In this document: positions 6,937 to 46,302 of the stretch, piece after piece
How positions within the stretch are numbered: position 1 is the stretch's first letter
Layout of the letters: the number at the start of each line of letters is the position of its first letter
Source: Mycoplasmatota bacterium
GTDB lineage: Bacteria > Bacillota_I > Bacilli_A > RF39 > UBA660
Assembly (NCBI GenBank): GCA_022771205.1
Contig: JALFCF010000001.1
Coordinates: forward strand, 130,663-194,662
Direction: 5' to 3'
DNA length: 64,000 nucleotides
Notes under the pieces: model-generated
Databases searched by the model: none
The model's input: the letters and a program-made list of their open reading frames with translations, nothing else
What the model was told of the DNA's origin: nothing
Position numbers and translations under genes: made by a program

Positions 6937-8043
6937 TTAACTTAAATTATCCATAGTTTTTACAATCTCATCCATCTTATTTTTAAATAGGTGAGAATAG
7001 GTATTTAGTGTTTCATCAATCTTTGCATGACCTAAATATTTAGCAACAATCATAATACTTGCACCATTATTAATTAAAACTGAAGCACAAGAGTGTCTAA
7101 AGTCATGAATTCTTATTTGCTTAACACCAGATTCTTGAATATATTTATTTTTCTGATGTCTTAATATATGAGCTGATAAAGGTTCTTTATCTCCAAATAC
7201 AAACCATTTTTGATTAAAGCCGTATTGTTTCTTATCTCTTAAATATAATTCGTGTAGATCTTTCATGACTCTTTCTGGAACTGGTAATGTTCTAACACTA
7301 GTTCTAGTTTTGGGAGTAGTAACATAACATTTACCTCCATCTCCCTCTTGAACGACATTTTTAACCACTGAGAGCTCTCTATTAAGGAAATCTATATTAT
7401 CTCAAGATAGACCTCTTAATTCGCCTCTACGAAGACCACAAAAGTATAATACTTCGAATAATGCTTTCCATTTAATATCATCTATTACTGATAAGAATTG
7501 TTTAAATTCTTCCCATGTATAGAATTGCATTTCTTTTGGTGGTTTGTTTGGATTACTAAACTTTTCCATTTTATTATAAATAGAAGTGAAGTTGAAATCA
7601 TGCCATTTAGTTCCATAGTTAAGAATAGTTTTTAATAATTTATAATATCCATTCTTAGTTTTATCAGCAAGATTTAATGCACCGATTCTTTTTCTCCAAG
7701 TAATATAGTGTTCTAACTTAATATCTTTAATCTTTAATTCATAGAATTCACTTAATTCTTTAATATTAACTCTATATGTTCTTAAAGTAGATGTTTTAAC
7801 TTTATCTTTCTTATATTCATAAAATTCTTCATATAGTTGTTTAAAAGTCATTCCAGTAACATTTATTTCTTTAGTTTCATATCCGACTAAGGAGTCTCTT
7901 TCAGCTTTCAAAGCTTCATTTCTAGTCATATAGCTTCTTGACATATATGGTTTGGTTCTCCCATAAACCTTTATTTTGTCATAAAAATACCATCTTCTAC
8001 CATCTTTGGTAGCTCTTTCTTTTGGTAACTGTAATACAGCCAT
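6937..8043 (-). pseudogene. int: Tyrosine recombinase/integrase (Tn916/phage-Int-like) interrupted by an in-frame TGA at 7402-7404
   Basis: The two ORFs 7402..8043 and 6937..7368 are in the same frame. Read-through gives ...GLRRGELRGLS*DNIDFLNRELSV...KTRTSVRTLPV...HDFRHSCAS...LGHAKIDETLNTYSHL. These are box I and box II with the R..HxxR..Y catalytic residues. The TGA sits exactly where the conserved Trp of 'LxW.DID' is expected. Confidence 0.7.
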
Positions 8044-19900: not shown

Positions 19901-20087
19901 TCATGAATTAAAAGAAGTGGTAGAGGAATATGCACTAACTGATTGGTCTGCAAAAGAAGCAACTCGTGCTAGAATGAGAACCAAAATTAAGGAATGCTTA
20001 AGAAAATATAATTATCCACCAGAATATACTCAACAAGCAGTGGATGATGTTATTAAACAAGCAGAATATATTATGAATGATAATTAG
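16986..20087 (+). CDS. hsdR: Type I restriction enzyme R subunit
   Basis: Motifs 'TDEAHRG' and 'QGSGKS', ~1030 aa. Start was chosen at ATG 16986 after an 'aggtga' RBS; the track starts at 16953. Confidence 0.9.
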   Translation: MVYESEIEEAIIQLLQNKNYEFIDENDSWISDRKLDEFINKDLLLDCLSRINGTNDFEILNEAVNTIMRLENPSLFERNFAFHKYLIDGITIESKNYVVNPLIRFIDFETPENNVFQVCHQVKFNEGRSNRIPDVIIYINGIPLVVMELKNFSEDATKAMLEDAYDQLGESSEHNGYRYDIPTLFNYNAFLVISDGVTTKVGTLTSKIDRFNEWKSVAGEKGYDDSCVTQLNILIDGLFEQHRLLDVIKNNIFFIQDKNNKPVKIMSQYHQYFGVNKAYDSILKTIKPEGSGKAGIIWHTQGSGKSFSMVMLAHRLLISPQLNVPTIVLLTDRIDLDDQLYKTFFSARQYLKCEPVVATSREDLVKKLSQIKQGGVILTTVGKFDKENLPKNERTNIIVMTDEAHRGHYGLYETVHYEKNKETDEMEAVFKYGVEKYIRDALPNATFIGFTGTPVSTKDKQTTDIFGDIIDTYDMTQSVIDGSTVKLYYESRLAKVWTDENILHEIDNYYNDLEKSGDADSNSIERSKAEMSKIKVILEEDDMINLFANDIIEHYEERKGFLNGKAMIVCQTRHAAAKLYKRIIELRPEYEKSTILVVTESNKDTAEERELFGNSDYRKELSEEFKKENSKYKIAIVCDMWLTGFDVPDLDVMYFIKRLKSYNLMQAIARVNRVFPGKPYGLVVDYIGLDKALDEALTEYTDRDRENNCQDIKEEIYTILKEKLSVLNEMFYKVDKSKFFSSDALTRFTAIQDGTQFVLEDKKREDQFMSDLSITIKQAFVVCGGIATQDEKNDVYYYLSIRSYILKLRIRVGTVSTREMNDYVSNLLADAIKGDEVKVLTKGADAVNVIDLLSTEKIEELRKKNPPLVFVEIVKRLLERAIAESRKNNFFKSQEYSKRLRKILEKYNDRDNLFTPETTIVDLVNFAGEMVSDEKEANKLGIFGRERAFYDALIRDKSAQELLNDETLKLIAHELKEVVEEYALTDWSAKEATRARMRTKIKECLRKYNYPPEYTQQAVDDVIKQAEYIMNDN

Positions 20088-20095
20088 GAGATAGT

Positions 20096-21019
20096 ATGAA
20101 TATAGGTAAACTAAAAGAAGTTGATATTAGAAATTTATGGAAACATGAGCAATATGATTTTTCTGAATGGCTATCGCATGATGAGAATATAGAGGAACTA
20201 AATGATATATTAGGCTTAACTTTAACTGATGTATCTAAAGAAGTGTATGTTGGTTCTTATAGATGCGATTTAGTGGCTGTTGATGAGTCAACTGGAATAA
20301 AAGTAATAATTGAAAATCAACTTGAATCATCTAACCATGATCATTTAGGCAAAATTATTACATATGCCTCAGGGTTAAATGCTCAAGTTGTAGTGTGGAT
20401 TGTAACTCATGCAAAAGAAGAACATAAAAGTGCAATTGAATGGTTAAATAATAATACTAATGGAGATGTTAACTTTTTCTTAATAGAATTACATGCATAT
20501 AAAATAGGTGATTCATTACCAGCTCCTTACTTTGAGGTAGTAGAAAAGCCAAATGATTTTATAAAAAATACTAAAGTAAATAGTGATAAATCAGAACTTA
20601 ACAAATCTCAATCAGAGAGGTTAGAATTCTGGAATCAGTTCAATGATGTTTTAATAGAAAAGGGGAAACCATTTAATGCAAGAAAAGCTACAACAGACCA
20701 CTGGTATGATGTTGCTATAGGAACAAGTGCAGCTCACATAGGTATTACTTTGGTTAATAAAGAATCTTATATTGGAGTAGAATTCTACATAAATGATGAT
20801 AAAGAAATGTTCGATAAATTATTAGAAAAACGAAGCATAATTGAAGAGGAATTAGGATTTAAATTAGATTGGCAAAGATTAGAAAATAGAAGTGCTAGTA
20901 GAATTAAATACTATATTAAAGGTTTAAATTTTGATGATCATTCAAATTATGATGAATTAATAGACAAATCAATTACTGCTGCTACAAAAATGAGAGACGT
21001 ATTTAAAAAGTATATTTAA
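20096..21019 (+). CDS. PD-(D/E)xK nuclease-like N-terminal domain with a DUF4268-like C-terminal region, of the kind often found beside Type I RM loci
   Basis: 'CDLVAVDESTGIKVIIENQLESSNHDHLGKIITY' fits the D...E-x-Q/K + 'GQhhxY' restriction-endonuclease-fold motif. Gene follows hsdR by 8 nt. Confidence 0.45.
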   Translation: MNIGKLKEVDIRNLWKHEQYDFSEWLSHDENIEELNDILGLTLTDVSKEVYVGSYRCDLVAVDESTGIKVIIENQLESSNHDHLGKIITYASGLNAQVVVWIVTHAKEEHKSAIEWLNNNTNGDVNFFLIELHAYKIGDSLPAPYFEVVEKPNDFIKNTKVNSDKSELNKSQSERLEFWNQFNDVLIEKGKPFNARKATTDHWYDVAIGTSAAHIGITLVNKESYIGVEFYINDDKEMFDKLLEKRSIIEEELGFKLDWQRLENRSASRIKYYIKGLNFDDHSNYDELIDKSITAATKMRDVFKKYI

Positions 21020-21086
21020 TTGTTAAAAAGGTTTAGATATGATTCTAAATCTTTTTTTGTGATAGAATAAGTAATTGGTGATTAGT

Positions 21087-21863
21087 ATGGAAGGGAATTT
21101 CCTATTATTTATTAATAAAGTGTATATTGATTTATTAAAAAAAGATAATTGTAATAAGGGTATAATAAGAAGTATTAAGCTAATTAGCAAAATGATTAAA
21201 ACTGGATATATTAAAGATTCTTATGTGTTAATTAGAAGTGTATATGAAGAATTGATGAGTGAACTTGCAATTATTAGCGATTCTAATTTTCAAATCGATG
21301 TAAAGACTGAACCAGGAGAAATACGAAGCAAAGTAATAGATAATATTAATGTGTTATTTAAAGAAGAGACTATCGATGAAAAATATATAAAAGATATTTA
21401 TAGTTATCTATCTAATATATCTCATGAATCTACAACTAGAAAATTATTAAAGGACTTAGCATGTAATAATAAATCAAAGACAGTTATAATCGATAATACT
21501 TATTTTGTATTGATAACTGTTGCTTATATATATTTAAATTATTTATACAAAAATAAAGAAGAATCTGATTTTATAGATAAACTTTATGTAGCTGGTATAA
21601 GTACGTTAATGATGTCATTATATAAATTTTCCATTTCTTTATCACCTGAGAAAGCAAAAAAATATAATGATTATTTTATTACTCAAAGAGATATTAATTT
21701 TATGAATAAAAAAAGAAATGAAATATCAGAGATTAAAGATGATATAATAGCAAATCCAATTGATGAAGATTTAGTTAAAGAATATTTTTCTGATTTTGAA
21801 GAATTGTTAGAAAAATATAATTATAAAAATTTATATAAAAAGTGCATGAATGAGTCACAATAA
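21087..21863 (+). CDS. Hypothetical protein, last gene of the hsd block
   Basis: ATG 21087 follows a 'ggtga' RBS. No recognisable domain. Confidence 0.35.
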   Translation: MEGNFLLFINKVYIDLLKKDNCNKGIIRSIKLISKMIKTGYIKDSYVLIRSVYEELMSELAIISDSNFQIDVKTEPGEIRSKVIDNINVLFKEETIDEKYIKDIYSYLSNISHESTTRKLLKDLACNNKSKTVIIDNTYFVLITVAYIYLNYLYKNKEESDFIDKLYVAGISTLMMSLYKFSISLSPEKAKKYNDYFITQRDINFMNKKRNEISEIKDDIIANPIDEDLVKEYFSDFEELLEKYNYKNLYKKCMNESQ

Positions 21864-22044
21864 TAAATGATCAGATATAGACAAAATTATATCTGATTTT
21901 TATTTTTACATTAACTTTTACATTAACACTTATATAAATTTTAATAAACTATGAAAAATTGATATTGCTCACAAAGCTTTATTTTATGGGCATTTTAAAC
22001 TTTTGTATAAGAGATAACTCGTCTAAAAAATCGACCTCCTGAAT

Positions 22045-22070
22045 GAGCCGTAAGGCTCCGCTTTTTTTGT
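22045..22070 (+). terminator. Rho-independent terminator (gagcc-gtaa-ggctc + T7)
   Basis: Seen in sequence. Confidence 0.55.
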
Positions 22071-22132
22071 TTAAAATATTAAAAAGTTCAAAATAATATA
22101 AAAAAAATAAAATGTTTGTACATTTTATTTTT

Positions 22133-22693
22133 TTAATAATTAAACTGTTTACAATTATATTCATATAGTAATTCATTGACATCAGTTAATTTAAAAATTT
22201 TATTAATAAAGCAGAATCTTATTATTAAATCGTATTTATTATTTTTAGGTAATGAATAAGAAGCACTATCTAAAAGACTATCTAATTCATTTTCTGTTAA
22301 CTCTAATGCCAAAGCTAAAAGTATTATTGTTTCTTTGCTAGGATGATAATTTTCATCACTTCTAATTTTTGAAAATAATCGTCTATCTATATGTACTTTA
22401 TTATAAACATCAGAGTCTTTTAAGTTTCTATCATCAATAAGTTTAAAAAGCATTGTTTGAAAATTAATATCTTCTTCATGCTTATCTAAAAAATCCTTTA
22501 TATTTAAATCTTGTATTTGCTCAGTATCGATGTGCTTCTTTCTATAAGTTGCCCCGACACTATATCCTTTTTCTTTACTAAAACATTCCCTAGAAAAGCA
22601 TTTTGTTTTATTAAAAGAAGAAAATCTTTTTGGCCTTTGATTACTTAAATTGCTATCAAGATAGTCTTTTAATTTCTCTTTTAAATCTTTCAT
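22133..22693 (-). CDS. Hypothetical protein with a C-terminal HTH-like region
   Basis: Start ATG 22693 follows 'ggagg'. The tracked N-terminal extension is unsupported. Confidence 0.35.
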   Translation of the reverse strand: MKDLKEKLKDYLDSNLSNQRPKRFSSFNKTKCFSRECFSKEKGYSVGATYRKKHIDTEQIQDLNIKDFLDKHEEDINFQTMLFKLIDDRNLKDSDVYNKVHIDRRLFSKIRSDENYHPSKETIILLALALELTENELDSLLDSASYSLPKNNKYDLIIRFCFINKIFKLTDVNELLYEYNCKQFNY

Positions 22694-22830
22694 ATTTACC
22701 TCCAATATGTATTTATAAATGTAAGTAATTATAAAATATTGTATCATATCACATTTAAAATGTCGCCTGTTAAGTGACCTATATAATAAATAAAAGAAGT
22801 ATGATTTAGGCAGAAAAGGAGATGTTAGAA

Positions 22831-23424
22831 ATGAAAAAAACAAAAAAAGAAATGGACGTAGTTTTTATACTTGATAGAAGTGGTTCTATGCAAGGTACTG
22901 AAAAAGATACAATAGGAGGTTATAATAGTTATATTGACAGTTTCAAAAGTAAAGATGCCAAAATAACAACAGTATTATTTGATCATGAATATGAAATGAT
23001 AACTAAAAGACAAAATGTCAATGAAGTGCCTAAGTTAACAGAAAAACAGTATTTTGTTAGAGGTTGCACTGCTTTATTAGATGCAGTAGGAAAATCAATA
23101 AAATACATGGAAAAAGAAGAAGCTGAAAAAGTAATCTTCATTATTACTACTGATGGATATGAGAATGCTTCACAACAGTTTAATAAAAATCAAATAAAAG
23201 AGATGATTCAAGGACATAAGGAATGGGAATTTATATATGTAGGAGCAAATATTGATTCATATAGTGAAGGACAGAGTATCGGAATTAATAAATCAAATAT
23301 TGCTAATTATAGAAAAAGTAGAAATGGAATATCCAATTTATTTAAATCAGTATTAACAGCCAGTGAAAAATTTTGTGAAGAAGATAGAATAGATACTAGT
23401 TGGAAAAAAGATTTAGAAGATTAA
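22831..23424 (+). CDS. von Willebrand factor type A (vWA) domain protein
   Basis: MIDAS-like 'DRSGSM' plus 'ITTDGYEN'. RBS 'aaggag'. Divergent from the preceding gene. Confidence 0.6.
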   Translation: MKKTKKEMDVVFILDRSGSMQGTEKDTIGGYNSYIDSFKSKDAKITTVLFDHEYEMITKRQNVNEVPKLTEKQYFVRGCTALLDAVGKSIKYMEKEEAEKVIFIITTDGYENASQQFNKNQIKEMIQGHKEWEFIYVGANIDSYSEGQSIGINKSNIANYRKSRNGISNLFKSVLTASEKFCEEDRIDTSWKKDLED

Positions 23425-23438
23425 ATAATAAAAAATAG

Positions 23439-23468
23439 TTGACATATCAAAAGTTGTGTCCTATAATC
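23439..23468 (+). promoter_or_regulatory. Sigma-A-type promoter: ttgaca, 18-nt spacer, tataat
   Basis: Consensus hexamers seen in sequence. Confidence 0.5.
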
Positions 23469-23473
23469 TACAA

Positions 23474-23572
23474 CAAGTGAGGAGATATAAACGATTTGTG
23501 AGCTATCTCGGGGTAAAACCTACACGAACATAAAGTACGGAGTCGCAAGTAATACGACTTCGTACTTTTTTC
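23474..23572 (+). promoter_or_regulatory. Copy 1 of a conserved 5'-UTR RNA element of unknown class, ending in an intrinsic terminator (gtacggagtcg / cgacttcgtac + T6, 23535-23572)
   Basis: Shares four exact blocks with copy 2 at 31965-32043: gaggagatataa, gtgagctatct, aaaacctacacgaaca, aagtacggagtcgc. Confidence 0.45.
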
Positions 23573-23608
23573 GTATAAAGTCAAAGTCGGAGAAAGGAGG
23601 TATAAAGA

Positions 23609-23797
23609 GTGAGTAAAAAAATTGATGTGGGACAATATTTCAAAAAAAGATATGAAACGGAATGTCATTCTATAAAAGAAAAAGAAAATCAGGGGATTTA
23701 TATAGATAATATGGCACTAGATTTACTAGAAGAAAGAGGATTTGATAGAAAACAAAAAACAATTTATTATAATAAATATATAAGGAGATATATATGA
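23609..23797 (+). CDS. Small basic protein (62 aa), translationally coupled to the downstream Ham1-NUDIX gene
   Basis: Strong RBS 'aaggagg' + GTG. ATGA overlap with the next gene. Confidence 0.4.
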   Translation: MSKKIDVGQYFKKRYETECHSIKEKENQGIYIDNMALDLLEERGFDRKQKTIYYNKYIRRYI

Positions 23798-24798
23798 AAG
23801 AAATAACTTATGTAACAGGCAATTGGGCTAAAATTGATAGTGCTAAACAAATATTAGAACCACTTGGATACCAAGTGAATAATATAAAAATGGATACAAT
23901 CGAAATACAAGCAGATACAACAGAAGAAGTTGCTAAATATTCTGCTAAATGGGCTAGTGAAAAATTAAAATGTGCGGTATTAAAAAATGACTCTGGTTTA
24001 TTTGTAGAAGCATTAAATGGTTTTCCAGGAGTATATACACATTATGTAGATGATACTTTAGGAGAAGATGGATTATTGAAACTTTTAGATGGAGTAGAAA
24101 ATAGAAAGGCTTACTTTAAAGAAGTCTTAGCTTACTGTGAGTATGGACAAGAACCTATTACATTTACAGCAATCACAAAAGGTACTATTGCGAAAGAAAA
24201 GAGTGGAACTTATGGCTGGAGTTGGGATTTTGTTTTTATACCCGAAGGACAAACGAAAACTTTAGGTTGTTATCCAGATAAAGAAAGATGGAAATTTTGG
24301 AGTCTAGAAGCATACCAACATTTAGCAGCATACCTAGATGAAAAAGAAAAAACACCAGAAGAAAAAAATGAAATCAGTGTGTTTGTTCTAAATGATCAGA
24401 AACAAATACTATTACAAAAAAGAAGTGCTAATAAAAAATATTATCCTAATAGATGGGCATTATTAACTGGCCATGTAGAAGAAAAAGAAACAATAGAAGA
24501 AGCAGCTTTAAGAGAACTACAAGAAGAAATCGGCTTAAAAATAAATAAAGATGAATTATATCCATTGGCTAACGGAAATTTTACAATTAAAAGAGAAAAT
24601 CATCATAATACTCATTATTTTTATATTATAAATAATAAACTATCATCAGATTTTATTATTCAAAAAGAAGAATTATCAGAAGTAAAATGGTATGATATTG
24701 ATGAAGTAATAAAATTAATAAAAAACAATTCTGAAGAAATAGTTTATAAAGAAGATAAAATCTATTTATTTGAGTATTTAAAAAATATGTCAATTTAA
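23794..24798 (+). CDS. Fusion of Ham1/RdgB-like non-canonical purine NTP pyrophosphatase and a NUDIX hydrolase
   Basis: N-terminus 'ITYVTGNWAKIDSAKQIL' is Ham1-like. C-terminal Nudix box 'GHVEEKETIEEAALRELQEEIGL'. Confidence 0.6.
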   Translation: MKEITYVTGNWAKIDSAKQILEPLGYQVNNIKMDTIEIQADTTEEVAKYSAKWASEKLKCAVLKNDSGLFVEALNGFPGVYTHYVDDTLGEDGLLKLLDGVENRKAYFKEVLAYCEYGQEPITFTAITKGTIAKEKSGTYGWSWDFVFIPEGQTKTLGCYPDKERWKFWSLEAYQHLAAYLDEKEKTPEEKNEISVFVLNDQKQILLQKRSANKKYYPNRWALLTGHVEEKETIEEAALRELQEEIGLKINKDELYPLANGNFTIKRENHHNTHYFYIINNKLSSDFIIQKEELSEVKWYDIDEVIKLIKNNSEEIVYKEDKIYLFEYLKNMSI

Positions 24799-24892
24799 TT
24801 AAAAGAGCTAGTTTAAAGAAATGCTCTTTTTTATTTATATACTAGAACAACATTAAATTAAATGGTAAAATGAAAAATATAGAGGTGAGTGT

Positions 24893-25516
24893 ATGAAAAA
24901 GATATTAATATATGGAGATTCAAATACCTGGGGTGATAATTTTATAACAGGAGAAAGAATCCCTGAAGAAAAGCAATGGGTAAATATATTAAGAACAAAA
25001 TACGGAAATAAATATCAGTTCTTTCAAGAAGGATTACCTGGTCGTATTGCTGGAAATGAAGAAACTATTAAAACCTATAAAAATGGTAAAGATACCTTTA
25101 TTTCCACTTTTAGAACTAATGCACCTGTTGATAAAATAATTATTGCATTAGGTACGAATGACTTGCAAATAAAATATCAAAAGACGAAAGATAAAATAAT
25201 AGAAGATCTTCTTTGGTATAAAAAGCAAATAGAAGAAAGCTATGCAGATTTAGAAGATCAGAAAAAATATTTTAATGATAAAAAATTACCAGAAATAATT
25301 TATATTTTACCAATTAATTTTGATTATCAAGATAAAGCAAGCGTAATATTTGACAAAGAATCAGAAGAAAAACGTCAACAAATAATTAGAGAATTTCAAA
25401 AAGATAAGAAATTAAAAACAATAGTAGCTAATGATTTAGAATTATTTGATGATGGAATTCACTTAAATTATCAGGGGCATGAACAAATGGCTTCCTTAGT
25501 AGAAAGGTTTTTATAA
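24893..25516 (+). CDS. SGNH/GDSL-family hydrolase
   Basis: 'IYGDSNTWG' block I. Preceded by a terminator at 24801-24835. Confidence 0.65.
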   Translation: MKKILIYGDSNTWGDNFITGERIPEEKQWVNILRTKYGNKYQFFQEGLPGRIAGNEETIKTYKNGKDTFISTFRTNAPVDKIIIALGTNDLQIKYQKTKDKIIEDLLWYKKQIEESYADLEDQKKYFNDKKLPEIIYILPINFDYQDKASVIFDKESEEKRQQIIREFQKDKKLKTIVANDLELFDDGIHLNYQGHEQMASLVERFL

Positions 25517-25518
25517 AC

Positions 25519-26331
25519 ATGAGAAGCAAACTAGAAGTATTAAAAAAATTAAGAGAACAAATAAATTTAGAAGTAAAAGGATTAGAAAATTATGATACAA
25601 CAGCACCTAATCTAATTATTGCAAATCATAATTGCTTAATGGATATATTTTGCTTACCAATGGCATTACCAGAAGAAGTAATTAGCTTAATAAGTGCTAG
25701 ACTAATTTATAAAAAAGAAATACCAAGGCAACAAATGGTAGAAACGTATTTACAAGCGATGCCAATTGAAGCACACGGCGGAGCCTTTTATAGTGATGCT
25801 TGTCTTGACAGTGCTAGCAAATTGTTGCAAGAAGGACATAGCGTTAGTATCTTTCCTGAAGGAGCATATGTAGAAGAAAATGTGGTTTATAAAGGAAGAA
25901 CTGGAGCATCTCGTATTTTATATACAGCAAGAGCCAAAGGAATAAAAGCTAATTTAATTCCAGTAGCAATAGATGTAAAGAAAACTAAATCAACATTAGA
26001 TAGTTATGAACCGCCAGTTAGTAAAGTAACTGTTAGTATATTAGACTCAATTAACTATGAAGATTCATATGAAAATTATATACACTCTCATAATAGAGAA
26101 TTAAAAAACATTTATCTTCATCAACCAATAGATGAAGGAATGAGAAAAATAGCAGATGAACTAGGTAGAGAATACAAAGACGAATATATTATTTTACGAC
26201 CAAAAGGAAATGTAATATTTGCTAATGGAGAAACTATAGAAACAGAAAATGCTCACACAAATGAAGCACATCTTAGATACAATAATGAGTTAGAAGAAAG
26301 AGTAAAAGAATTTAAAAAAGTAAAAAAATAA
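25519..26331 (+). CDS. Lysophospholipid (PlsC-like) acyltransferase family protein
   Basis: HX4D motif 'ANHNCLMD'. Confidence 0.55.
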   Translation: MRSKLEVLKKLREQINLEVKGLENYDTTAPNLIIANHNCLMDIFCLPMALPEEVISLISARLIYKKEIPRQQMVETYLQAMPIEAHGGAFYSDACLDSASKLLQEGHSVSIFPEGAYVEENVVYKGRTGASRILYTARAKGIKANLIPVAIDVKKTKSTLDSYEPPVSKVTVSILDSINYEDSYENYIHSHNRELKNIYLHQPIDEGMRKIADELGREYKDEYIILRPKGNVIFANGETIETENAHTNEAHLRYNNELEERVKEFKKVKK

Positions 26332-28395: not shown

Positions 28396-29001
28396 ATGAA
28401 AATTTTATTCGCAACAACAAATCCGGCTAAGGTAAAAACTTATGCATCAAGACTAATAGAAAAAGGTTATGAAATAGTTACTTTAAAAGATTTAAAAATA
28501 GATATAGATGTAGAAGAAAATGGAACAACACCATTAGAAAATGCTATTATTAAAGCTAAAGAATATCATAAAATAAGTAATCTTCCAACGATTGCGATGG
28601 ATGAAGGCCTATATTTAGATGGTGTTCCAGAAAATCTTCAACCAGGAACTCATGTAAGAAGAGTAAATGGTAAAAAGTTAACTGATGAAGAAATGATTAC
28701 TCATTATATCAATCTAGTAAATCAATATGGTATTAATGGTAAGTTAACTGGTTATTTTCAAAAAGGAGTAGCTATTTTAAATGATAATCAAATAGATACA
28801 ATCGAAATAAAAGCTCCAAGATGTTTTTCTAATACAAGATGTGAAACAATTACAATAGGCTATCCGTTGGCTTCTATCCAATGGATGGAGGAGTTGAACA
28901 AATACAAAGCAGAATTAACAAAAGAAGAAGAAAATAAATTAATGTCTAAAGAACAAAAAGAAATACTAGATTTTATAGAATCCAAAATAGCCAGAAATTG
29001 A
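28396..29001 (+). CDS. Ham1/RdgB-family non-canonical NTP pyrophosphatase-like protein
   Basis: 'ILFATTNPAKVKT' N-terminal signature. Confidence 0.55.
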   Translation: MKILFATTNPAKVKTYASRLIEKGYEIVTLKDLKIDIDVEENGTTPLENAIIKAKEYHKISNLPTIAMDEGLYLDGVPENLQPGTHVRRVNGKKLTDEEMITHYINLVNQYGINGKLTGYFQKGVAILNDNQIDTIEIKAPRCFSNTRCETITIGYPLASIQWMEELNKYKAELTKEEENKLMSKEQKEILDFIESKIARN

Positions 29002-29045
29002 CGCAAAAATGAAAATATGATATAATATACACCCAAAAGAGGGGG

Positions 29046-29780
29046 ATGTATATGGAAGTGTGGTTACAAGAGTCATTAGACAAAGAAGCCGACGAAATGT
29101 TTACTAATTTAGAATATACAAGAAGAAGTTTAGTATATTTAAAATTACTTGCGAAACAATATAATTTACCATTCGAAGAAACAAAAAGTATTGTAGATCG
29201 TCTTTTTGTAAATTATTTAAATTTATATGAAGCAAATCCTAAGGAAGTTTCAAGAATTTTAAATGAAACTAACTTTCAAGAAAGAAGTGCTCTTCATGAA
29301 ATGTTATATACTTTTTTAGAAAATGAAGATAGTAATTATTTAGGTAGAGCACCTTTCGTAAATGGAATAAAACAAGAAAATGGAGTATATAATATAGAAA
29401 CTAAGTTTGGAACAATTAATTTAAAAAAAGCTAGTGACCACTTTATGATGACACCTTCAAGATTTATTTTTAAGAAAACACTTACAGGAATGTGTTTTGA
29501 TAGAACAACAGAATTCGTAACGACAAATCCAGAATATGAAGCTATTGTTAGTTATCTTCCGAATGTATTTGCTGGAGGATATTATCATGCTTATGCTAAA
29601 AAAGACGATATCATAGTTGACCCAGCTTGTAATGGTATATTTTTTAATGGAACTGGTGAAATAATTGAAGAAGGAAAGATTATCTATCAAACAACCGCAG
29701 AAGAATTAAAGAATGAAAGTGACGATTATGATTATCCAAAGCTTTTAGTAGCAGCGATAAAAAACTCAAGAAAAAAATAG
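29046..29780 (+). CDS. Hypothetical protein
   Basis: ORF with RBS 'agaggggga'. Start may be 29052. Confidence 0.35.
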   Translation: MYMEVWLQESLDKEADEMFTNLEYTRRSLVYLKLLAKQYNLPFEETKSIVDRLFVNYLNLYEANPKEVSRILNETNFQERSALHEMLYTFLENEDSNYLGRAPFVNGIKQENGVYNIETKFGTINLKKASDHFMMTPSRFIFKKTLTGMCFDRTTEFVTTNPEYEAIVSYLPNVFAGGYYHAYAKKDDIIVDPACNGIFFNGTGEIIEEGKIIYQTTAEELKNESDDYDYPKLLVAAIKNSRKK

Positions 29781-29796
29781 AAAAGAAAGTGATGCT

Positions 29797-30522
29797 ATGA
29801 ACAATAATTTAGATGTATGGGCTATTCAAAAATATCCCCAAGAGTTATTTACTGCCTTAGAAAATGTCAAAACAGATAAAGGTGACTTAATCTTATTTAC
29901 TAACTTGGAATGTGACTTTATATTAGGTGCACAAAAAGTGAAAAGAAGTTTTGATACTTCTCTTTACTATGATGCAGAAAATGGAAATGATGCTTTAATA
30001 TTATTAATGAAAGATGGAATAGCAACAGCAGATCAAATAAGAGAGTACTTACAAAAACAAGGGTTGAAATATCATGAAGTAACTTTTTATAAAGGATTAA
30101 AAGAAAAGTTATTAAACGAGTTTTCTATTCCATATGAGGAAGAAAAAGAAGATGAAAATATACCAGAACTTTGGTTTGCAAGGGAAGAATATGTATTAAA
30201 AGATGCATTAAATGATAGTATTGAAAAAGGAAACACTACTTGTGATTATTATCCTGCACTAGAAGGAATTTTAAGTTTAAATTACATTAGTAATGAAAGG
30301 CCAACTAGTTTTAACGTAGATGGAAGAAAAATTTCAGGAGTAATAGCTTTAGAAGATAAAATGATTTTAATGATTAATAATGGAAACGATCCAAGAAATC
30401 TAAATCCATTGCAAGTCCAAATGGTAATGGACGAATTAAATGTTTCTGCTAACATACATTCTGCTAAAGAATTTGATATTTCAAAACCTTATCAAAGCAA
30501 GGTAATGAAGAAAAATGAATAA
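29797..30522 (+). CDS. Hypothetical protein
   Basis: ORF. No motif recognised. Confidence 0.35.
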   Translation: MNNNLDVWAIQKYPQELFTALENVKTDKGDLILFTNLECDFILGAQKVKRSFDTSLYYDAENGNDALILLMKDGIATADQIREYLQKQGLKYHEVTFYKGLKEKLLNEFSIPYEEEKEDENIPELWFAREEYVLKDALNDSIEKGNTTCDYYPALEGILSLNYISNERPTSFNVDGRKISGVIALEDKMILMINNGNDPRNLNPLQVQMVMDELNVSANIHSAKEFDISKPYQSKVMKKNE

Positions 30523-31249
30523 AGTAGAAGAGTTAGCCCAAATTATAAAAAGTTCTTCTAATACAGTTTTTTTTGGTGGGGCAGGAGTATCAACAGAAAG
30601 TGGATTAAAAGATTTCCGTAGTAAAGATGGATTATACTATGAAAAATATAAGTATCCGCCAGAAGAAATATTATCACATCATTTTTTTATAAAATATCCA
30701 AAAGAGTTCTATGAATTTTATCGAAAGAAGTTAAATAGTTTAAATTACAAACCAAATGCAGCCCATAAAGTATTAGCATACCTAGAAGAAAAAGGATTAT
30801 TAAAAGCTGTTATTACTCAAAATATTGATGGTTTTCATCAAATGGCTGGATCAAAAAATGTTATTGAATTACATGGATCTGTATTAAGAAATTACTGTAT
30901 GAAATGTAATGAATTCTATGATGCCGAAAAGATTTTTGCAGAAGATAATATACCAAGGTGTGACTGTGGAGGCATAATAAAACCAGATGTGGTTCTATAT
31001 GAAGAAAATTTAGATGATAAAAGTATTCAAAAAGCAATTAAGTATATTAGTGAAGCTGAGGTTTTAATTATAGGAGGAACTTCATTGAATGTTTATCCAG
31101 CAGCTGGACTAATAAATTATTTTAAAGGAAAATATTTAGTTCTAATTAATAAAGAACAAACTCCATATGACAGAAAATGTACATTAACAATCTATGATAG
31201 TATTGGAATAGTTTTAGAAAAAATAAAAGAATACATAGAAAAAGGATAG
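30515..31249 (+). CDS. cobB: NAD-dependent protein deacylase (sirtuin, Sir2 family)
   Basis: 'FFGGAGVSTESGLKDFRS', Zn-ribbon CxxC...CxxC, 'GTSLNVYPAA'. Confidence 0.8.
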   Translation: MNKVEELAQIIKSSSNTVFFGGAGVSTESGLKDFRSKDGLYYEKYKYPPEEILSHHFFIKYPKEFYEFYRKKLNSLNYKPNAAHKVLAYLEEKGLLKAVITQNIDGFHQMAGSKNVIELHGSVLRNYCMKCNEFYDAEKIFAEDNIPRCDCGGIIKPDVVLYEENLDDKSIQKAIKYISEAEVLIIGGTSLNVYPAAGLINYFKGKYLVLINKEQTPYDRKCTLTIYDSIGIVLEKIKEYIEKG

Positions 31250-31255
31250 GAATTC

Positions 31256-31906
31256 CTATCTTTTCTTTTGCATAATAACTCCATACATATCAACATTATC
31301 TTTGCCATAATACCCATAAAACTTTTGTGCTGGTTGAGGCAATAAACTCATTCTATCATCAATGATACTATTAACTTTAGAATTGAAATTATTAACATCC
31401 TGTTGATATTGCATTTCTACTTCTAATACTTTTTCTTGTGGAACTCCTGGAACAATACCTGTTGTATAATAAACAAGAGCAGACTGTTCTGGTCCATCTT
31501 TCAGAGTATCTATTCTAGCAAATAGTGGTAAAAAGTTAAGCATTTTCCTTTCTTGTACTAAAGATACAAAAGGAATGTCCCAATAATTATTGACAGTATA
31601 ATCAAAAAATAAAGAATCACCATCACCAATTCGATTAATAATATCTTCAGTAGGAAAAGCATAATGTTGATTTCTATCTGTCCTTATTTCAGCACTATTC
31701 GTCCAAGGAAGACATTCAACGGAAAAAACTGTTCCTGAATTGCAATCCCACAGTAGAACTTGAAAATCATCATCTTGATCATTTTGATATATAGTTTTAC
31801 ATCCCACAGATGTCAATAACTGAACTAATCCATAAGCTGTATCTATTGTTTTTTTATCATTACTCACTAGTAAATTAAACCTCCTAAAACAACTATAGTA
31901 TACCAT
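31256..31906 (-). CDS. Hypothetical protein
   Basis: ORF. No motif recognised. Confidence 0.35.
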   Translation of the reverse strand: MVYYSCFRRFNLLVSNDKKTIDTAYGLVQLLTSVGCKTIYQNDQDDDFQVLLWDCNSGTVFSVECLPWTNSAEIRTDRNQHYAFPTEDIINRIGDGDSLFFDYTVNNYWDIPFVSLVQERKMLNFLPLFARIDTLKDGPEQSALVYYTTGIVPGVPQEKVLEVEMQYQQDVNNFNSKVNSIIDDRMSLLPQPAQKFYGYYGKDNVDMYGVIMQKKR

Positions 31907-31928
31907 ATGTCACTGAAAAAGACTAATA

Positions 31929-31957
31929 TTGACTTTTTTTCAAGCATATGCTATAAT
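31929..31957 (+). promoter_or_regulatory. Sigma-A-type promoter: ttgact, 17-nt spacer, tataat
   Basis: Seen in sequence. Confidence 0.5.
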
Positions 31958-31964
31958 AACCAAG

Positions 31965-32090
31965 CAAGCGAGGAGATATAAGCAATTTTTGTGAGCTATC
32001 TTGGGATAAAACCTACACGAACAAGCAGTAAGTACGGAGTCGCTAAGCAAATAGTGGTCTTTGTGCTTTTTATTTTGCAAAGCATAAAGC
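31965..32090 (+). promoter_or_regulatory. Copy 2 of the conserved 5'-UTR RNA element (core 31965-32043), followed by weaker hairpins before the RBS of gene 32108
   Basis: Same four exact blocks as copy 1, with small indels between them. Confidence 0.45.
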
Positions 32091-32107
32091 TATAAAGGAG
32101 AGATAAA

Positions 32108-32662
32108 ATGCAAAATAAACAAATTATAGATCCTAGCATCCAAGGATTAAACAATATTCCGCAACATTTTGATAAATTAGCAAAAAACTATTATGTGTAT
32201 AAATATGCTTCAGCATTAAAGGTTTCAGAACAAGAACAACAAGAAATGAATGTATTAGAAGTACTAGAACAACTAGGATTTCCTATGGATAAAACAGGAA
32301 CATATTTTTATAAAGAAATAATTATGAAAACTATGGAAGAATTAGAGATGGTAGAAACAAAAGAAGAAGAAAGAGATTTAAAGACAGCTATGGAGAATAG
32401 TTATTCTCAATTCTATTTTGATATTGCTAGAAATAACATAGATATTGGTTTAAAATCATTTCATGGTTGCATTCAGTTAGCTTATGAAGGAAGAAAAAAA
32501 ACACCAGACTGTATAAAACTAGAGCAAAGAATAGGAATAAATGGTGTTTGCTCTGATTACAGAGCAGAAGCAAGTTTAATAGCTAGACATATCATGACTA
32601 ACAATAACAAAGCAAAAGAACCACAAGCTGTTCAAACAACTGCAGTAGTAAAAGTAAAATAA
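32108..32662 (+). CDS. Hypothetical protein
   Basis: RBS 'aaaggagag'. No motif. Confidence 0.35.
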   Translation: MQNKQIIDPSIQGLNNIPQHFDKLAKNYYVYKYASALKVSEQEQQEMNVLEVLEQLGFPMDKTGTYFYKEIIMKTMEELEMVETKEEERDLKTAMENSYSQFYFDIARNNIDIGLKSFHGCIQLAYEGRKKTPDCIKLEQRIGINGVCSDYRAEASLIARHIMTNNNKAKEPQAVQTTAVVKVK

Positions 32663-32757
32663 TTATGTAAAAAGCATAGAATTATTTATCTATGCTTTTT
32701 ATATGTCTAAAATATTCGATTATGATATACTAAATATAAAAATGAAAGGGAAATAAA

Positions 32758-33021
32758 ATGAAAGAAGAAAAAAACAGAATAGTATATGAAATAGAAGGAA
32801 AAGAAATTGGTGAAATAGAATTTAAAGAATTAGATAAAAACACAGTAGATATTTATCATACTTATGTAGATCCTGATTATCAAGGAAAAAATATAGCTTC
32901 ACAACTAGTAGAAGAGTTATTTAAAAAATTAAAAACAGAAAATAAAAAAGCTGTTGTGAGCTGTAGCTACGTAGCACATTGGATAGAAAAACATCCTGAA
33001 TATAGTGACCAGTGCCTGTAA
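32758..33021 (+). CDS. Small GNAT-like acetyltransferase-fold protein
   Basis: 87 aa, resembling the minimal GNAT (Acetyltransf_CG-like) family. Confidence 0.45.
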   Translation: MKEEKNRIVYEIEGKEIGEIEFKELDKNTVDIYHTYVDPDYQGKNIASQLVEELFKKLKTENKKAVVSCSYVAHWIEKHPEYSDQCL

Positions 33022-33164
33022 ACTATTTGTAAAAATATGACAAGTTAAAATTATACATATTGATATTCAAAGAAAGTAAAAAAATACTTTCTTTTTTTTA
33101 TGATAATAGATTGACAAGTGTATAAAAGTACGCATATAATTAAAATGCAGAAAGGATGTGAATT

Positions 33165-33812
33165 ATGGAAGTAACAAACCCAAAGTATCAGCATCAAGGA
33201 ATACATGTTATCACCTCAATTTTTACAGTAGATAAAGGAATATTGAAAGTATTACTAGTAAAAAGGAAAAATGAACCTTACAAAGATTACTGGGCATTAA
33301 CTGGTGGATCTCTTTATAATGATGAAGATTTAGAGGATGGACTAAATAGAGAAATATATGAAAAAACTGGTTTAAGAAATATTGAAGTGAAATTTTCAAA
33401 AGTTTTTGGTAAAAAAGATAGATCACCAGTAATGAGAATGATAGCTATTACTTATATTGGGATAATTGATGCTAGTAAGGTAGAAATTGCAAAAGATACA
33501 TTAAAAACAAGTAATGCTGAATGGTTTAAAATTGATGAAGTACCACAACTTGCTTATGATCATAATGAAATAATAGAAGAGGCAATAAAGACATTAAAAG
33601 CAGAAATTTTAAAAACAGACTTATTAAAGGTCTTTTTCCCTAATGGATTCACCTTACCAGAATTACAAAAAATATATGAAAGTATCTTAAATAAAAAATT
33701 AGATAGAAGGAATTTTAGAAAAAAGATGTTAAATACGAACATTATTATAGCAACAGAGGAAGAAATGACTTTTGAGGGAAAGAAGAAAGCTAAAATTTAT
33801 AAATTTAAATAA
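33165..33812 (+). CDS. NrtR-like regulator: NUDIX domain fused to a C-terminal winged-helix domain
   Basis: Nudix box 'TGGSLYNDEDLEDGLNREIYEKTGL'. C-terminus 'LPELQKIYESILNKKLDRRNFRKKML...KAKIYKF' matches the NrtR DNA-binding-domain pattern. Confidence 0.55.
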   Translation: MEVTNPKYQHQGIHVITSIFTVDKGILKVLLVKRKNEPYKDYWALTGGSLYNDEDLEDGLNREIYEKTGLRNIEVKFSKVFGKKDRSPVMRMIAITYIGIIDASKVEIAKDTLKTSNAEWFKIDEVPQLAYDHNEIIEEAIKTLKAEILKTDLLKVFFPNGFTLPELQKIYESILNKKLDRRNFRKKMLNTNIIIATEEEMTFEGKKKAKIYKFK

Positions 33813-33829
33813 AAGAAAGAAGAGGGAGT

Positions 33830-34432
33830 ATGCAAGAAAAGTTATGTTTTTATTACAGTGCAATGAAAGGTGGAAAAACAACCAGAATTTTTCAAAAGAT
33901 ACATGATCTAGAAGAAAATGATCAACAAGTATTATTAATAAAACCTGCTCAAGATACCAAAGGAGAAGCACAGATAATAAATAGGCTAAAGCAAACTAGA
34001 ACAGTTGATATTCTACTTTTTCCAACAGCCAAAATTTTATCGGAAGAAAATATAGATAAAATTTATGATTGTGATCATATTATTGTAGATGAAGCTCAAT
34101 TTTTAACACCAGAACAAATAGATGAATTGTGGAAAATTAATAAAAAGGCAAATGTTCCAATTACTTGTTTTGGTTTGTTAACAAACTTTAGAGGAGAATT
34201 GTTTCCAGGAGCAAAAAGATTAATTGAACTTTCAGATGAAAAAATAGAATTAGAAACAAATTCCTTATGTACCTGTGGAGCTCCAGCAAAATTTAATGCT
34301 AGAAAAGTAGATGGAGTATTTACTATGAAAGGTGACGAGATAGAGATTGATGGAGCAAGTTCAAATGTTGAATATGTACCACTTTGTGGAGCTTGCTTTT
34401 ATAAAAAAGTTTATAGAAAAGGAAAGAAATAG
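33830..34432 (+). CDS. tdk: Thymidine kinase
   Basis: P-loop 'MKGGKTT', 'VDEAQF', C-terminal Zn-ribbon cysteines. Confidence 0.85.
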   Translation: MQEKLCFYYSAMKGGKTTRIFQKIHDLEENDQQVLLIKPAQDTKGEAQIINRLKQTRTVDILLFPTAKILSEENIDKIYDCDHIIVDEAQFLTPEQIDELWKINKKANVPITCFGLLTNFRGELFPGAKRLIELSDEKIELETNSLCTCGAPAKFNARKVDGVFTMKGDEIEIDGASSNVEYVPLCGACFYKKVYRKGKK

Positions 34433-34433
34433 A

Positions 34434-35546
34434 ATGAAAAAGAAAAAGATTGCTTTAACAGGAGGACCTTGCGCTGGAAAAACAACAGCTATCCAGCAAA
34501 TTGAAAAAGAATTTACAGAAAAAGGATACCAAGTACTAATAGTACCAGAAGCAGCGACAATTCTTATTAATAGTGGAATTAGACCATTTGGAAATTTTGC
34601 ACTAGATACGGTAGAGTTTCAAAAACAAGTAATAACTTTGCAATTAACTCTAGAACAGTTGGCAGAAGAAACTGCCAAACAAAGTAAAAATCCAACAATC
34701 ATTTTATGTGATAGAGGAATACTAGATGATAAAGCATATGTAACAAAAAAAGAGTGGCAAGACTTATTGAAAGACTTTTCTGCAAAAGAATTTGATTTGA
34801 TGAATCGTTATGACTTAGTAATCCATTTAAGAACAGCAGCTTTAGGAAAAGAAGAATTTTATACATTGGATAATAATAGTGCTAGAACTGAAACAGCAGA
34901 AGAAGCAAGAGAAAAAGATAAAAAAACATTAGAAGGATGGCTAGGTCATGAAAAACTAAAGATTATTGGTAATGAAAACTCTTTTGAAGACAAAATAAAT
35001 CAAGTAGTAAAAGAAATATATGGGGTATTATCAAAACCATATCCAATCCAAATTCAAAGAAAGTATTTAGTAGAAAAAATAGATATAGATAAAATAGAAA
35101 AGGAAAAATTAGTAAAATTAGAAATAGAACAGTATGTAATAGAAAGTGGAAATGTAGAATATATCTATCGTAGAACAGGAAAAGAAAAGGAAGAAAAGTA
35201 TACATTAATAACTAAAATAGATACAGAAATTAATAATGAAAGAATAACAACAAAAAGAAATATTTCAGAAGAAGAATATTATTCAAATTTATCAAAAGAA
35301 GAAACACCTATAACAAAGACAAGATATTGCTTTGAATATCAAAATAGTTATTTTAGATTAGATATCTTTAACAATGGATTACAAATGTTAGAAGTAGAAA
35401 CTACTTCTTCTGATGAAAAAATTCAAATACCTAAATTTATAGAAATAAAAGAAGAAGTAACAAATGATACTAATTATAGAAACGCTTCATTATATAAAAA
35501 GTTAAATTCTCCTCAAAAAGATATAGAAAAGACATTTAAAAAGTAG
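34434..35546 (+). CDS. P-loop ATPase (NadR-kinase/AAA_28-like) fused to a C-terminal CYTH-like domain
   Basis: 'IALTGGPCAGKTT' Walker A. C-terminus 'IQRKYLVEK...' has CYTH-type EXEXK-like beta strands. ATG 34434 follows the tdk stop directly. Confidence 0.45.
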   Translation: MKKKKIALTGGPCAGKTTAIQQIEKEFTEKGYQVLIVPEAATILINSGIRPFGNFALDTVEFQKQVITLQLTLEQLAEETAKQSKNPTIILCDRGILDDKAYVTKKEWQDLLKDFSAKEFDLMNRYDLVIHLRTAALGKEEFYTLDNNSARTETAEEAREKDKKTLEGWLGHEKLKIIGNENSFEDKINQVVKEIYGVLSKPYPIQIQRKYLVEKIDIDKIEKEKLVKLEIEQYVIESGNVEYIYRRTGKEKEEKYTLITKIDTEINNERITTKRNISEEEYYSNLSKEETPITKTRYCFEYQNSYFRLDIFNNGLQMLEVETTSSDEKIQIPKFIEIKEEVTNDTNYRNASLYKKLNSPQKDIEKTFKK

Positions 35547-42880: not shown

Positions 42881-42964
42881 GGCATCTTTTTTTTGCGATT
42901 TGCAGAGAAAGTATAATTTTGTTATAATAAGTATAGAATGAATAATAGGAAGGAGACAAATTCA

Positions 42965-43125
42965 TTTAAGCGCCTGGACTTTAACAGTTGACGAGGACAG
43001 TAGTGATCGAAAGATTCGGCGGATGCTACTGCGGGGAAAAGTGCTTCGTTAGATATATAGCAAAAAGTAAAATTAACATTACAACAATATATATATCACC
43101 ACATATATTTTTAGCATGGAGGAAA
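42965..43125 (+). ncRNA. glmS ribozyme: glmS ribozyme (GlcN6P-responsive self-cleaving riboswitch)
   Basis: Core 'AGCGCC...GACGAGGA...CGAAAGAUUCGGCGGAUGC...' matches the glmS ribozyme consensus and sits directly 5' of glmS. Confidence 0.8.
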
Positions 43126-46225: not shown

Positions 46226-46302
46226 GGCGGCGTTGGTGAAGTGGTTAACACGCTGGTTTGTGGCACCAGTATGCATGAGTTCGATTCTCATACGCCGCCC
46301 CA
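46226..46302 (+). tRNA. trnH: tRNA-His (anticodon GUG), with the extra G-1 base and encoded CCA
   Basis: 8-bp acceptor stem including G-1:C73. Anticodon loop cttGTGgc. T-arm atgag-TTCGATT-ctcat. CCA at 46300-46302. Confidence 0.85.

Follow-up and report, generated by a model that had tools for sequence, protein, structure and literature searches.

Guanidine-I (ykkC), guanidine-IV (mepA), fluoride (crcB) and azaaromatic (yjdF) riboswitches are transcriptional ON switches for exporter and detoxification genes, and the metal-ion classes NiCo and Mn2+ are ON switches located before exporters. Here we describe a structured leader element present in two copies in a 64,000-nt stretch of DNA (positions 130,663 to 194,662 of contig JALFCF010000001.1, assembly GCA_022771205.1; hereafter the window, whose full length provides the coordinates used below). 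Copy 1 (23474–23572) and copy 2 (31965–32076) lie on the plus strand, as do their promoters, helices and terminators, and each consists of conserved blocks, an aptamer-like domain and a terminator. In our reading, each copy is a 5′ mRNA leader that switches genes ON by transcription attenuation and is most probably an undescribed class of riboswitch, to which we assign a probability of roughly 60%.

Like the guanidine-I, guanidine-IV, fluoride and azaaromatic ON switches, the leader follows directly on a promoter, its aptamer 3′ strands are common to a terminator, efflux and modifying-enzyme genes lie downstream, and several copies occur per genome, tandems included; unlike them, it has a four-way junction with other conserved nucleotides and gives no Rfam match at E ≤ 10. 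The compact four-helix junction, the similar size and the conserved nucleotides at junction and internal loop recall the NiCo (czcD; RF02683), Mn2+ (yybP–ykoY; RF00080) and SAM-I (RF00162) riboswitches, but the junction sequences differ, these models have no hit at the leader loci, and the genes, in contrast to those of the metal-ion classes, encode DUF990 ABC exporters, GNAT acetyltransferases and methyltransferases rather than cation-diffusion facilitators or P-type ATPases. Copy 1 precedes a NUDIX-containing gene, as do the NUDIX-associated ykkC subtype 2c (ADP/CDP) and MDR-NUDIX, although here the NUDIX link stems from a strain-specific deletion and neither model matches. Serial attenuators that flank a first gene, with a terminator competing against an alternative fold, are also found in the pyr operon of Bacillus subtilis (PyrR), where protein binding promotes termination; the present leader, however, lacks a PyrR-type loop, its first genes do not form one family and its conserved fold is predicted to antiterminate.

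Rfam 15 (4227 models) was searched at gathering thresholds and, in local scans, at E ≤ 10. At gathering thresholds only glmS, SAM and tRNA models matched in the window, none of them at the leader loci; at E ≤ 10 both window copies, one copy of a second subtype (type B, below) and a variant from locus L062 returned only chance-level scores (9–20 bits against thresholds of 43–90). T-box (RF00230) gave no match at E ≤ 10 (the element is only ~80 nt long), ykkC–yxkD (RF00442), including subtype 2c, gave none either, and inspection of the leader found no PyrR loop, UAG repeats, ribonucleic antiterminator (RAT) sequence or dual hexaloops. We found no description of the element in the searchable literature, a scope that leaves aside subscription-only papers and bulk catalogues of structured RNAs, and the parts covered of a 2024 survey of 50 genomes in Nucleic Acids Research (PMC11109978) make no mention of it. 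The leader is a well-supported new orphan riboswitch candidate, a four-way junction ON switch with a terminator platform: it combines two generic hallmarks of riboswitches, a covarying structured aptamer domain and an expression platform exclusive with that domain.

Four-way junction fold and conservation

Both copies start ~7–10 nt 3′ of a near-consensus sigma-A promoter. The copy 1 promoter (TTGACA-17-TATAAT; 23439–23467) agrees with the consensus at 12 of 12 positions and the copy 2 promoter (TTGACT-17-TATAAT, with an extended TG upstream; 31929–31957) at 11 of 12. Four exact blocks are shared between the copies, within 23479–23546 in copy 1 and 31970–32043 in copy 2, while the promoter spacers and the stretches separating the blocks differ and contain indels, which indicates a constraint on the blocks themselves. 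With a covariance model derived from related sequences, copy 1 scored 78.6 bits (23474–23549) and copy 2 scored 88.2 bits (31965–32046); the third-best match in a scan of the whole window reached only 10 bits.

The first ~75–82 nt of the transcript fold into a four-way junction of helices P1–P4. Joining strand J1/2 is G, J2/3 has no nucleotides, J3/4 is ACA and J4/1 is GAG; the internal loop of P2 (UAA/GAGC) is conserved, and there is little or no variation at the nucleotides of junction and loop, whereas the helices vary in sequence and length. In copy 1 the aptamer-like junction spans 23476–23547 (given the model score, minimum free energy (MFE) folding and covariation), with P1 at 23477–23480/23543–23546, J1/2 at G23481, P2a at 23482–23487/23504–23509 (enclosing the UAA/GAGC internal loop and a short P2b), P3 at 23510–23512/23519–23521, J3/4 at 23522–23524, P4 at 23525–23529/23535–23539 and J4/1 at 23540–23542. 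The copy 2 junction (31967–32044; model score and MFE) comprises P1 at 31967–31971/32040–32044, J1/2 at G31972, P2a at 31973–31978/31997–32002, P2b at 31982–31985/31989–31992, P3 at 32003–32005/32012–32014, J3/4 at 32015–32017, P4 at 32018–32022/32032–32036 and J4/1 at 32037–32039. Folded alone in ViennaRNA, 23474–23549 and 31965–32046 adopt exactly P1–P4 as the MFE structure (−11.8 and −11.9 kcal/mol, respectively), and RNAalifold recovered P2a, P2b, P3 and P4 unguided.

Two alignments, one of 63 distinct aptamers (A2) and a model-based one of 107 hits in 74 distinct rows (A5), support five helical segments (P1, P2a, P2b, P3 and P4). In A5, standard pairs occupy 96.1% of cells, against 26–43% when the partners are slid by 1–3 columns; 13 of the 23 pairs show compensatory changes, and the covariation score is 0.298, compared with 0.130 in shuffles (none of 500 reached 0.298). 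Every helix has compensatory support, strong in P2 and thinner in P1, P3 and P4. P2a (6 bp) is 100% paired and compensated in 6 of 6 pairs, and P2b, a variable hairpin, in 4 of 5. P1 (4–5 bp) alternates between UA, UG and CG at one position. P3 (3–9 bp) occurs as GGG/CCU, GGG/CUU, GAG/CUU and AGG/CCU (GC, GU and AU pairs), and P4 (3–5 bp) as CGAAC/GUACG, CGUA/UACG, CGUG/CACG, CAA/UUG and CGAUAC-GAAA-GUACG (AU and GC pairs). Loop lengths vary as well (14–27 nt for the P2 insert, 4–18 nt for the P3 loop and 3–11 nt for the P4 loop). The first P3 pair is G–U in 72 of the 74 distinct sequences and P1 position 5 is U–G in 13; these frequent G–U pairs fit an RNA on the given strand only, as the opposite strand would hold A–C mismatches. 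A kink-turn in the P2 internal loop was considered and rejected on inspection, the G–A/A–G positions not being conserved.

Much of what a first-pass annotation of this DNA had claimed for copy 1 and its counterpart holds: the four blocks were all found where it had placed them, as was the promoter of copy 1; its view of a structure under selection rather than a recent duplication agrees with the indels between blocks and the covariation across the family; and the Rfam search bears out its failure to match the riboswitch consensus sequences that it had compared by eye. Its ~70-nt element with a single helix was right in being structured but is longer, at ~75–82 nt plus terminator, and contains four helices, of which the gagata/tatctc pairing it had proposed is P2a.

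The 5′ strand of P1 in copy 1 is polymorphic within the species: GUGA, GCGA or ACGA stands opposite UCGC (window 23474–23549 compared with L180:3466–3541 and L181:2845–2920), giving a U–G pair, a C–G pair, or a C–G pair plus an A–C mismatch at the outer pair of P1. These variants are natural material usable for testing the role of P1.

The family is large. An exact-pattern scan of metagenome contigs gave 54 loci, 47 of them with the whole element; a looser scan of one genome per species gave at least 118 loci, of which at least ~56 are real and the others G+C-rich chance hits; and more copies came from sister strains and from loci chosen through the ABC gene. In all, metagenomes and metagenome-assembled genomes (MAGs) of gut and rumen yielded at least ~80 distinct sequences, whereas a pattern scan of a viral contig collection found 0 copies. 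Among the matches listed, every real hit in a genome comes from a MAG of gut or rumen origin, for the most part filed under Bacilli, Tenericutes, Mollicutes, 'Mycoplasma sp. CAG:877', 'Clostridium sp. CAG:710' or Candidatus Faecimonas; a few carry the label 'bacterium', Muribaculaceae or Acidaminococcus fermentans, and the latter two labels may be binning errors. The closest relatives of the window are an uncultured Bacilli MAG (88–89% nucleotide identity) and then Candidatus Faecimonas (78–80%). Further copies and covariation, which the first-pass annotation had proposed to seek in related Clostridia, were thus found, but the host belongs to Faecimonas-like Bacilli and is not a Clostridium.

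Two subtypes can be distinguished, with intermediates (for example, the L062 type). Type A, to which both window copies belong, has P2a GAGAUA/UAUCUC and an A–A mismatch in P4; type B has P2a UAUGUA/UACAUA and a U–A pair in P4, and scores 47–63 bits. Type B follows ~600–750 nt 3′ of type A, after a first gene, at six loci (L011, L076, L109, L110, L131 and L136) and in ten sister strains of the window, and the two stand in tandem, 55–65 nt apart, at L067 and L191. Type B copies often have no obvious promoter of their own and lie inside operons, where they overlap the end of the preceding open reading frame (ORF) and the nearest promoter is 500–700 bp away. The serial layout (type A, gene, type B, effectors) or the tandem would give a two-stage response, and the tandem could give a sharper response or two-input logic. 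Each member of the tandems (L067:3889–4097 and L191:2703–2920) has its own terminator; they precede S66 (LdcA/MccF-like) and S51 peptidase genes at L067 and an ABC exporter at L191.

Terminator platform and downstream genes

In all 76 distinct leaders a hairpin and U-run lie just 3′ of the aptamer, and 73 of them passed a stricter terminator check. Of the 14-nt stretch made up of the P4 3′ strand, J4/1 and the P1 3′ strand, the terminator 5′ arm takes 5–14 nt, and the 3′ arms differ among lineages. In copy 1 (23535–23571) the 11-bp stem described in the first-pass annotation (23535–23545/23555–23565) closes a 9-nt loop and is followed by U6 (23566–23571), with a hairpin energy of −14.7 kcal/mol; that annotation had overlooked the equivalent terminator of copy 2 (32032–32076), a bulged stem (32032–32066; −13.4 kcal/mol) followed by U5AU4 (32067–32076), so that its terminator-based leader was correct for copy 1 and incomplete for the pair. 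Both copies use the same conserved block as the 5′ arm, which runs from the P4 3′ strand through J4/1 into the P1 3′ strand. A simple terminator scan detected neither window terminator; the copy 1 loop has 9 nt and the copy 2 stem is bulged.

Because the 3′ strands of P4 and P1 double as the terminator 5′ arm, junction and terminator are mutually exclusive in the RNA, which is the layout of an ON switch. The two conformers of copy 1 have energies of −24.3 kcal/mol (terminator) and −11.8 kcal/mol (aptamer), and the full-length MFE is −31.7 kcal/mol; once the 3′ arm has been transcribed, the terminator is favoured by >12 kcal/mol. The nascent RNA would accordingly form the junction first, and the terminator 3′ arm would then invade it unless something stabilizes the junction; such fold-then-invade kinetics are the standard design of ON riboswitches. 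A ligand caught by the junction during transcription would hold P1 and P4 together and block the terminator, and RNA polymerase would then read into the downstream genes. That the leader is a cis-acting structured attenuator is highly probable in our estimation, and the attenuator layout already suggested for copy 1, with its riboswitch-like anatomy, now extends to the terminator platform of every distinct leader. Direct binding of a small molecule is probable, judging from the anatomy of the leader.

At loci with enough downstream sequence, a co-oriented ORF with its own ribosome-binding site (RBS) typically starts 40–220 nt after the aptamer. Across 107 RNA instances tallied for gene context, the commonest first gene belongs to family C2 (140–220 aa; 39 instances), followed by family C4 (74–157 aa; 24 instances), and members of both are always the first gene. 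Profile comparison of C2 with C4 (hhalign) gave a probability of 0.5%, indicating that the first genes come from at least two unrelated families. Behind copy 2, an RBS (AAGGAGAG, 32095–32102, plus strand) serves a 184-aa C2 gene (32108–32662, plus strand) whose product has no Pfam, NCBIfam or Protein Data Bank (PDB) sequence match above threshold. An AlphaFold2 (AF2) model of this protein built with database homologues (pLDDT 76.8) found its best PDB folds in 1FC3 and 1LQ1, the C-terminal DNA-binding domain of Spo0A (TM 0.70–0.76, probability 0.93–0.98, with a weak E of ~0.7); C2 is thus predicted to have a Spo0A C-terminal-like DNA-binding fold and is a putative regulator.

Next, often after type B, comes an ABC system of the ethyl-viologen (DUF990) exporter type, with a DrrA-like ATPase (49 instances) and two DUF990/ABC2_membrane_6 permeases (85 instances). 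Other genes directly downstream encode GNAT acetyltransferases, a SAM methyltransferase, S66 (LdcA/MccF-like) and S51 peptidases and an alpha/beta hydrolase, and many copies directly precede an ABC ATPase, GNAT or peptidase gene without a C2- or C4-type first gene. NCBIfam searches aimed at the GNAT substrate returned only sub-threshold RimJ-, AAC(6′)- and PaiA-like matches. The link to the exporter also holds in the reverse direction: the RNA was found upstream in three of three loci picked solely by ATPase similarity. A database search with the ATPase of L007:6943–7923 matched 7,995 clusters at E ≤ 1e-40, and the 120 best of these are without exception 85–99% identical, a conservation that is unusually high for an ABC exporter across many MAG species.

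Competing explanations and possible ligand

The alternative that survives best, although we consider it unlikely, is a protein-dependent attenuator, in which a trans-acting protein (encoded elsewhere or by the first gene), alone or together with a ligand that it binds, attaches to the junction and stabilizes an antiterminator in the manner of PyrR, HutP, LicT or ANTAR proteins. The series of type A, first gene, type B and effectors resembles the pyr operon, a gene of unknown function (C2 or C4, in the numbers given above) always stands first behind type A, and the invariant unpaired nucleotides could equally be protein contacts. Yet the RNA core stays invariant in front of first genes from two or more unrelated families, the predicted Spo0A-type fold of C2 would bind DNA, and the many copies placed directly before an ABC ATPase, GNAT or peptidase gene have no such first gene at all. 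Small-molecule aptamers, moreover, typically have such a compact junction of several helices in which the junction bases are conserved and the stems vary.

Far less probable is an independent small RNA gene, in which promoter, structured RNA and terminator would make up a ~100-nt trans-acting transcript and read-through would be incidental. Each window copy does have a strong promoter and a terminator of its own, and in some bacteria terminated riboswitch transcripts act in trans; however, a same-strand gene with its own RBS follows within ~40–220 nt wherever the downstream sequence is long enough, type B copies sit inside operons and frequently show no evident promoter of their own, and the terminator 5′ arm belongs to the conserved core, a switching design rather than the stable 3′ end of a small RNA.

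Ribosome-mediated attenuation by antibiotic stalling operates in erm and cat leaders. Stalled-ribosome attenuation of exporter genes has a precedent in BmrCD (PMC4191407). Applied here, a leader peptide would be translated from the Shine–Dalgarno-like purine run GAGGAG at the 5′ end of type A, and a ribosome stalled by an antibiotic would prevent the terminator, which would suit the drug-exporter-like ABC systems and acetyltransferases downstream. We rejected this mechanism as very improbable, because no upstream ORF is conserved among 74 distinct leaders: 51 of the 74 have no start codon 4–10 nt after the purine run, 16 distinct leaders have no purine run, and the others encode 1–2 codons, except for a single leader with 12. 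Between the strands of P2a, the insert (14–27 nt) has lengths across all three frames, and the purine run itself is a covarying P2a strand that UAUGUA replaces in type B. Least credible of all is a promoter-proximal DNA operator, duplicated together with its promoter and bound by a DNA-binding protein such as the Spo0A-C-like product, for although the element adjoins a promoter and the commonest downstream gene encodes a predicted DNA-binding protein, we rejected it on the compensatory changes in five helices, the strand-specific G–U pairs, the freely varying loop lengths, the type B copies inside operons (at the distance from a promoter and with the ORF overlap given above) and the promoter sequences that are not conserved between the window copies.

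Several points weigh against the riboswitch reading itself. P1 is short, and its covariation is confined to one position; covariation in P3 and P4 comes from few divergent sequences, because the collection scans demanded exact blocks 3 and 4, and the variation seen there derives mostly from extra copies found by the model in fetched loci and from loci fetched through proteins. We infer ligand binding from anatomy alone. The downstream genes are heterogeneous and mostly uncharacterised, pointing to a theme of export and modification and to no compound; the layout of attenuator, first gene, attenuator and effectors is also reminiscent of protein-mediated control, as in the pyr operon of B. subtilis; and no cultured host was identified among the matches listed.

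If the leaders are riboswitches, the regulated genes suggest as ligand a harmful compound that is exported or undergoes N-acetylation or methylation, possibly a metabolite or gut xenobiotic that is cationic or bears an amine; the ligand class is a guess from gene content, which clearly shows a theme of export and chemical modification but singles out no one compound, and in which the main families C2 and C4 are uncharacterised. The first-pass annotation had hinted at a nucleotide-derived ligand, which finds no family-wide support given that the genes downstream encode Spo0A-C-like proteins, DUF990 exporters, GNATs, methyltransferases and peptidases. Tentatively, and with somewhat less than even odds, we suggest a new riboswitch class that senses a compound without a known riboswitch (a polyamine or other cationic amine, a gut xenobiotic or an antibiotic) and heads a detoxification regulon in abundant, uncultured, small-genome gut Bacilli, with two subtypes in series or tandem giving a two-stage or two-input response.

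Were this so, the leader would reveal the natural substrate of the widespread, uncharacterised DUF990 ABC exporter family, whose ATPase ranks with the most conserved and most abundant proteins that this gut lineage encodes. New classes of riboswitch have become rare finds, and each identifies a molecule that bacteria need to monitor; the present candidate combines strong comparative support, a clear switching design, multiple copies per genome and a tight association with an exporter. The identity of the ligand would show which compound uncultured gut Bacilli defend against, give the exporter and the uncharacterised protein families C2 and C4 a function, and yield a sensor usable as a reporter.

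Gene neighbourhoods of the two copies

Copy 1 is followed by an RBS (AAAGGAGG, 23593–23600) and a 62-aa ORF (GTG at 23609 to 23797; 23593–23797 with the RBS, plus strand), and then by a Ham1–NUDIX fusion gene (23794–24798, plus strand; Pfam Ham1p_like and NUDIX). The first-pass annotation had described the leader as lying upstream of this small ORF and Ham1–NUDIX operon. Ten sister contigs encode an identical Ham1–NUDIX protein within flanks ~99% identical to the window, and in all ten the order is type A RNA, a 141–145-aa gene, type B RNA, a variable block, Ham1–NUDIX, a GDSL esterase and an acyltransferase, the variable block being a methyltransferase, an ABC exporter plus methyltransferase, or a methyltransferase plus sortase plus 275–279-aa protein. 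Window segments 22035–23768 and 23748–26000 align ~3.2 kb apart in L185/L188-type strains, and the two alignments overlap by 21 nt in a direct repeat, GAAAACAAAAA (window 23748–23768; L185:3756–3776 and 6955–6975). Sequence comparison thus indicates that the window strain carries a ~3.2-kb deletion between short direct repeats, which took with it the 3′ two-thirds of the 141–145-aa gene, the type B copy, the methyltransferase, the sortase and the 275-aa gene, and placed Ham1–NUDIX directly behind the leader.

The first ~50 residues of the 62-aa ORF equal those of a 145-aa protein (L173:1540–1977) at all but one position and are followed by a new tail; the ORF is evidently the truncated stump of the 141–145-aa gene, and the supposed operon is accordingly a product of the deletion. 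A relationship of the 62-aa ORF to C2 (pairwise BLAST E of 0.006) was rejected, as the C2 profile scored it at 5.0 bits and at least 9 of 2,000 shuffles scored higher; the 145-aa gene instead shows a distant relationship to a different first-gene family (blastp 2.6e-6 to L016 g1). The case is a warning, since a guess at the ligand from one strain's neighbourhood was misled by a recent deletion.

Upstream of conserved 186-aa (minus-strand) and 197-aa genes (window ~20000–22100; L179–L188), the sequence differs in every sister strain and holds defence-type genes (Upx-like, ThsB TIR, HI_1054 helicase, LlaJI restriction, nSTAND3 plus Fic, type I restriction–modification and GmrSD); the region beside the RNA locus looks like a hypervariable defence island.

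Copy 2 is surrounded by a cluster of nucleotide- and NAD-related genes (28396–35546), consisting of a stand-alone Ham1 gene, the second in the window (28396–29001), a SIR2 deacetylase (30515–31249), a small GNAT (32758–33021), an NrtR-type NUDIX regulator (33165–33812), a thymidine kinase-like gene (33830–34432) and a gene for a 399-aa P-loop protein (34347–35546). The gene order C2, GNAT, NrtR and thymidine kinase is repeated in the related MAGs L002, L017, L020 and L090. Elsewhere in the window, the RNAs recognized by Rfam are a glmS ribozyme/riboswitch (42958–43107, plus strand; 76 bits, E = 1.1e-15), a tRNA (46227–46299) and a SAM-I riboswitch with short P3 and P4 (57774–57857, plus strand; 66.5 bits).

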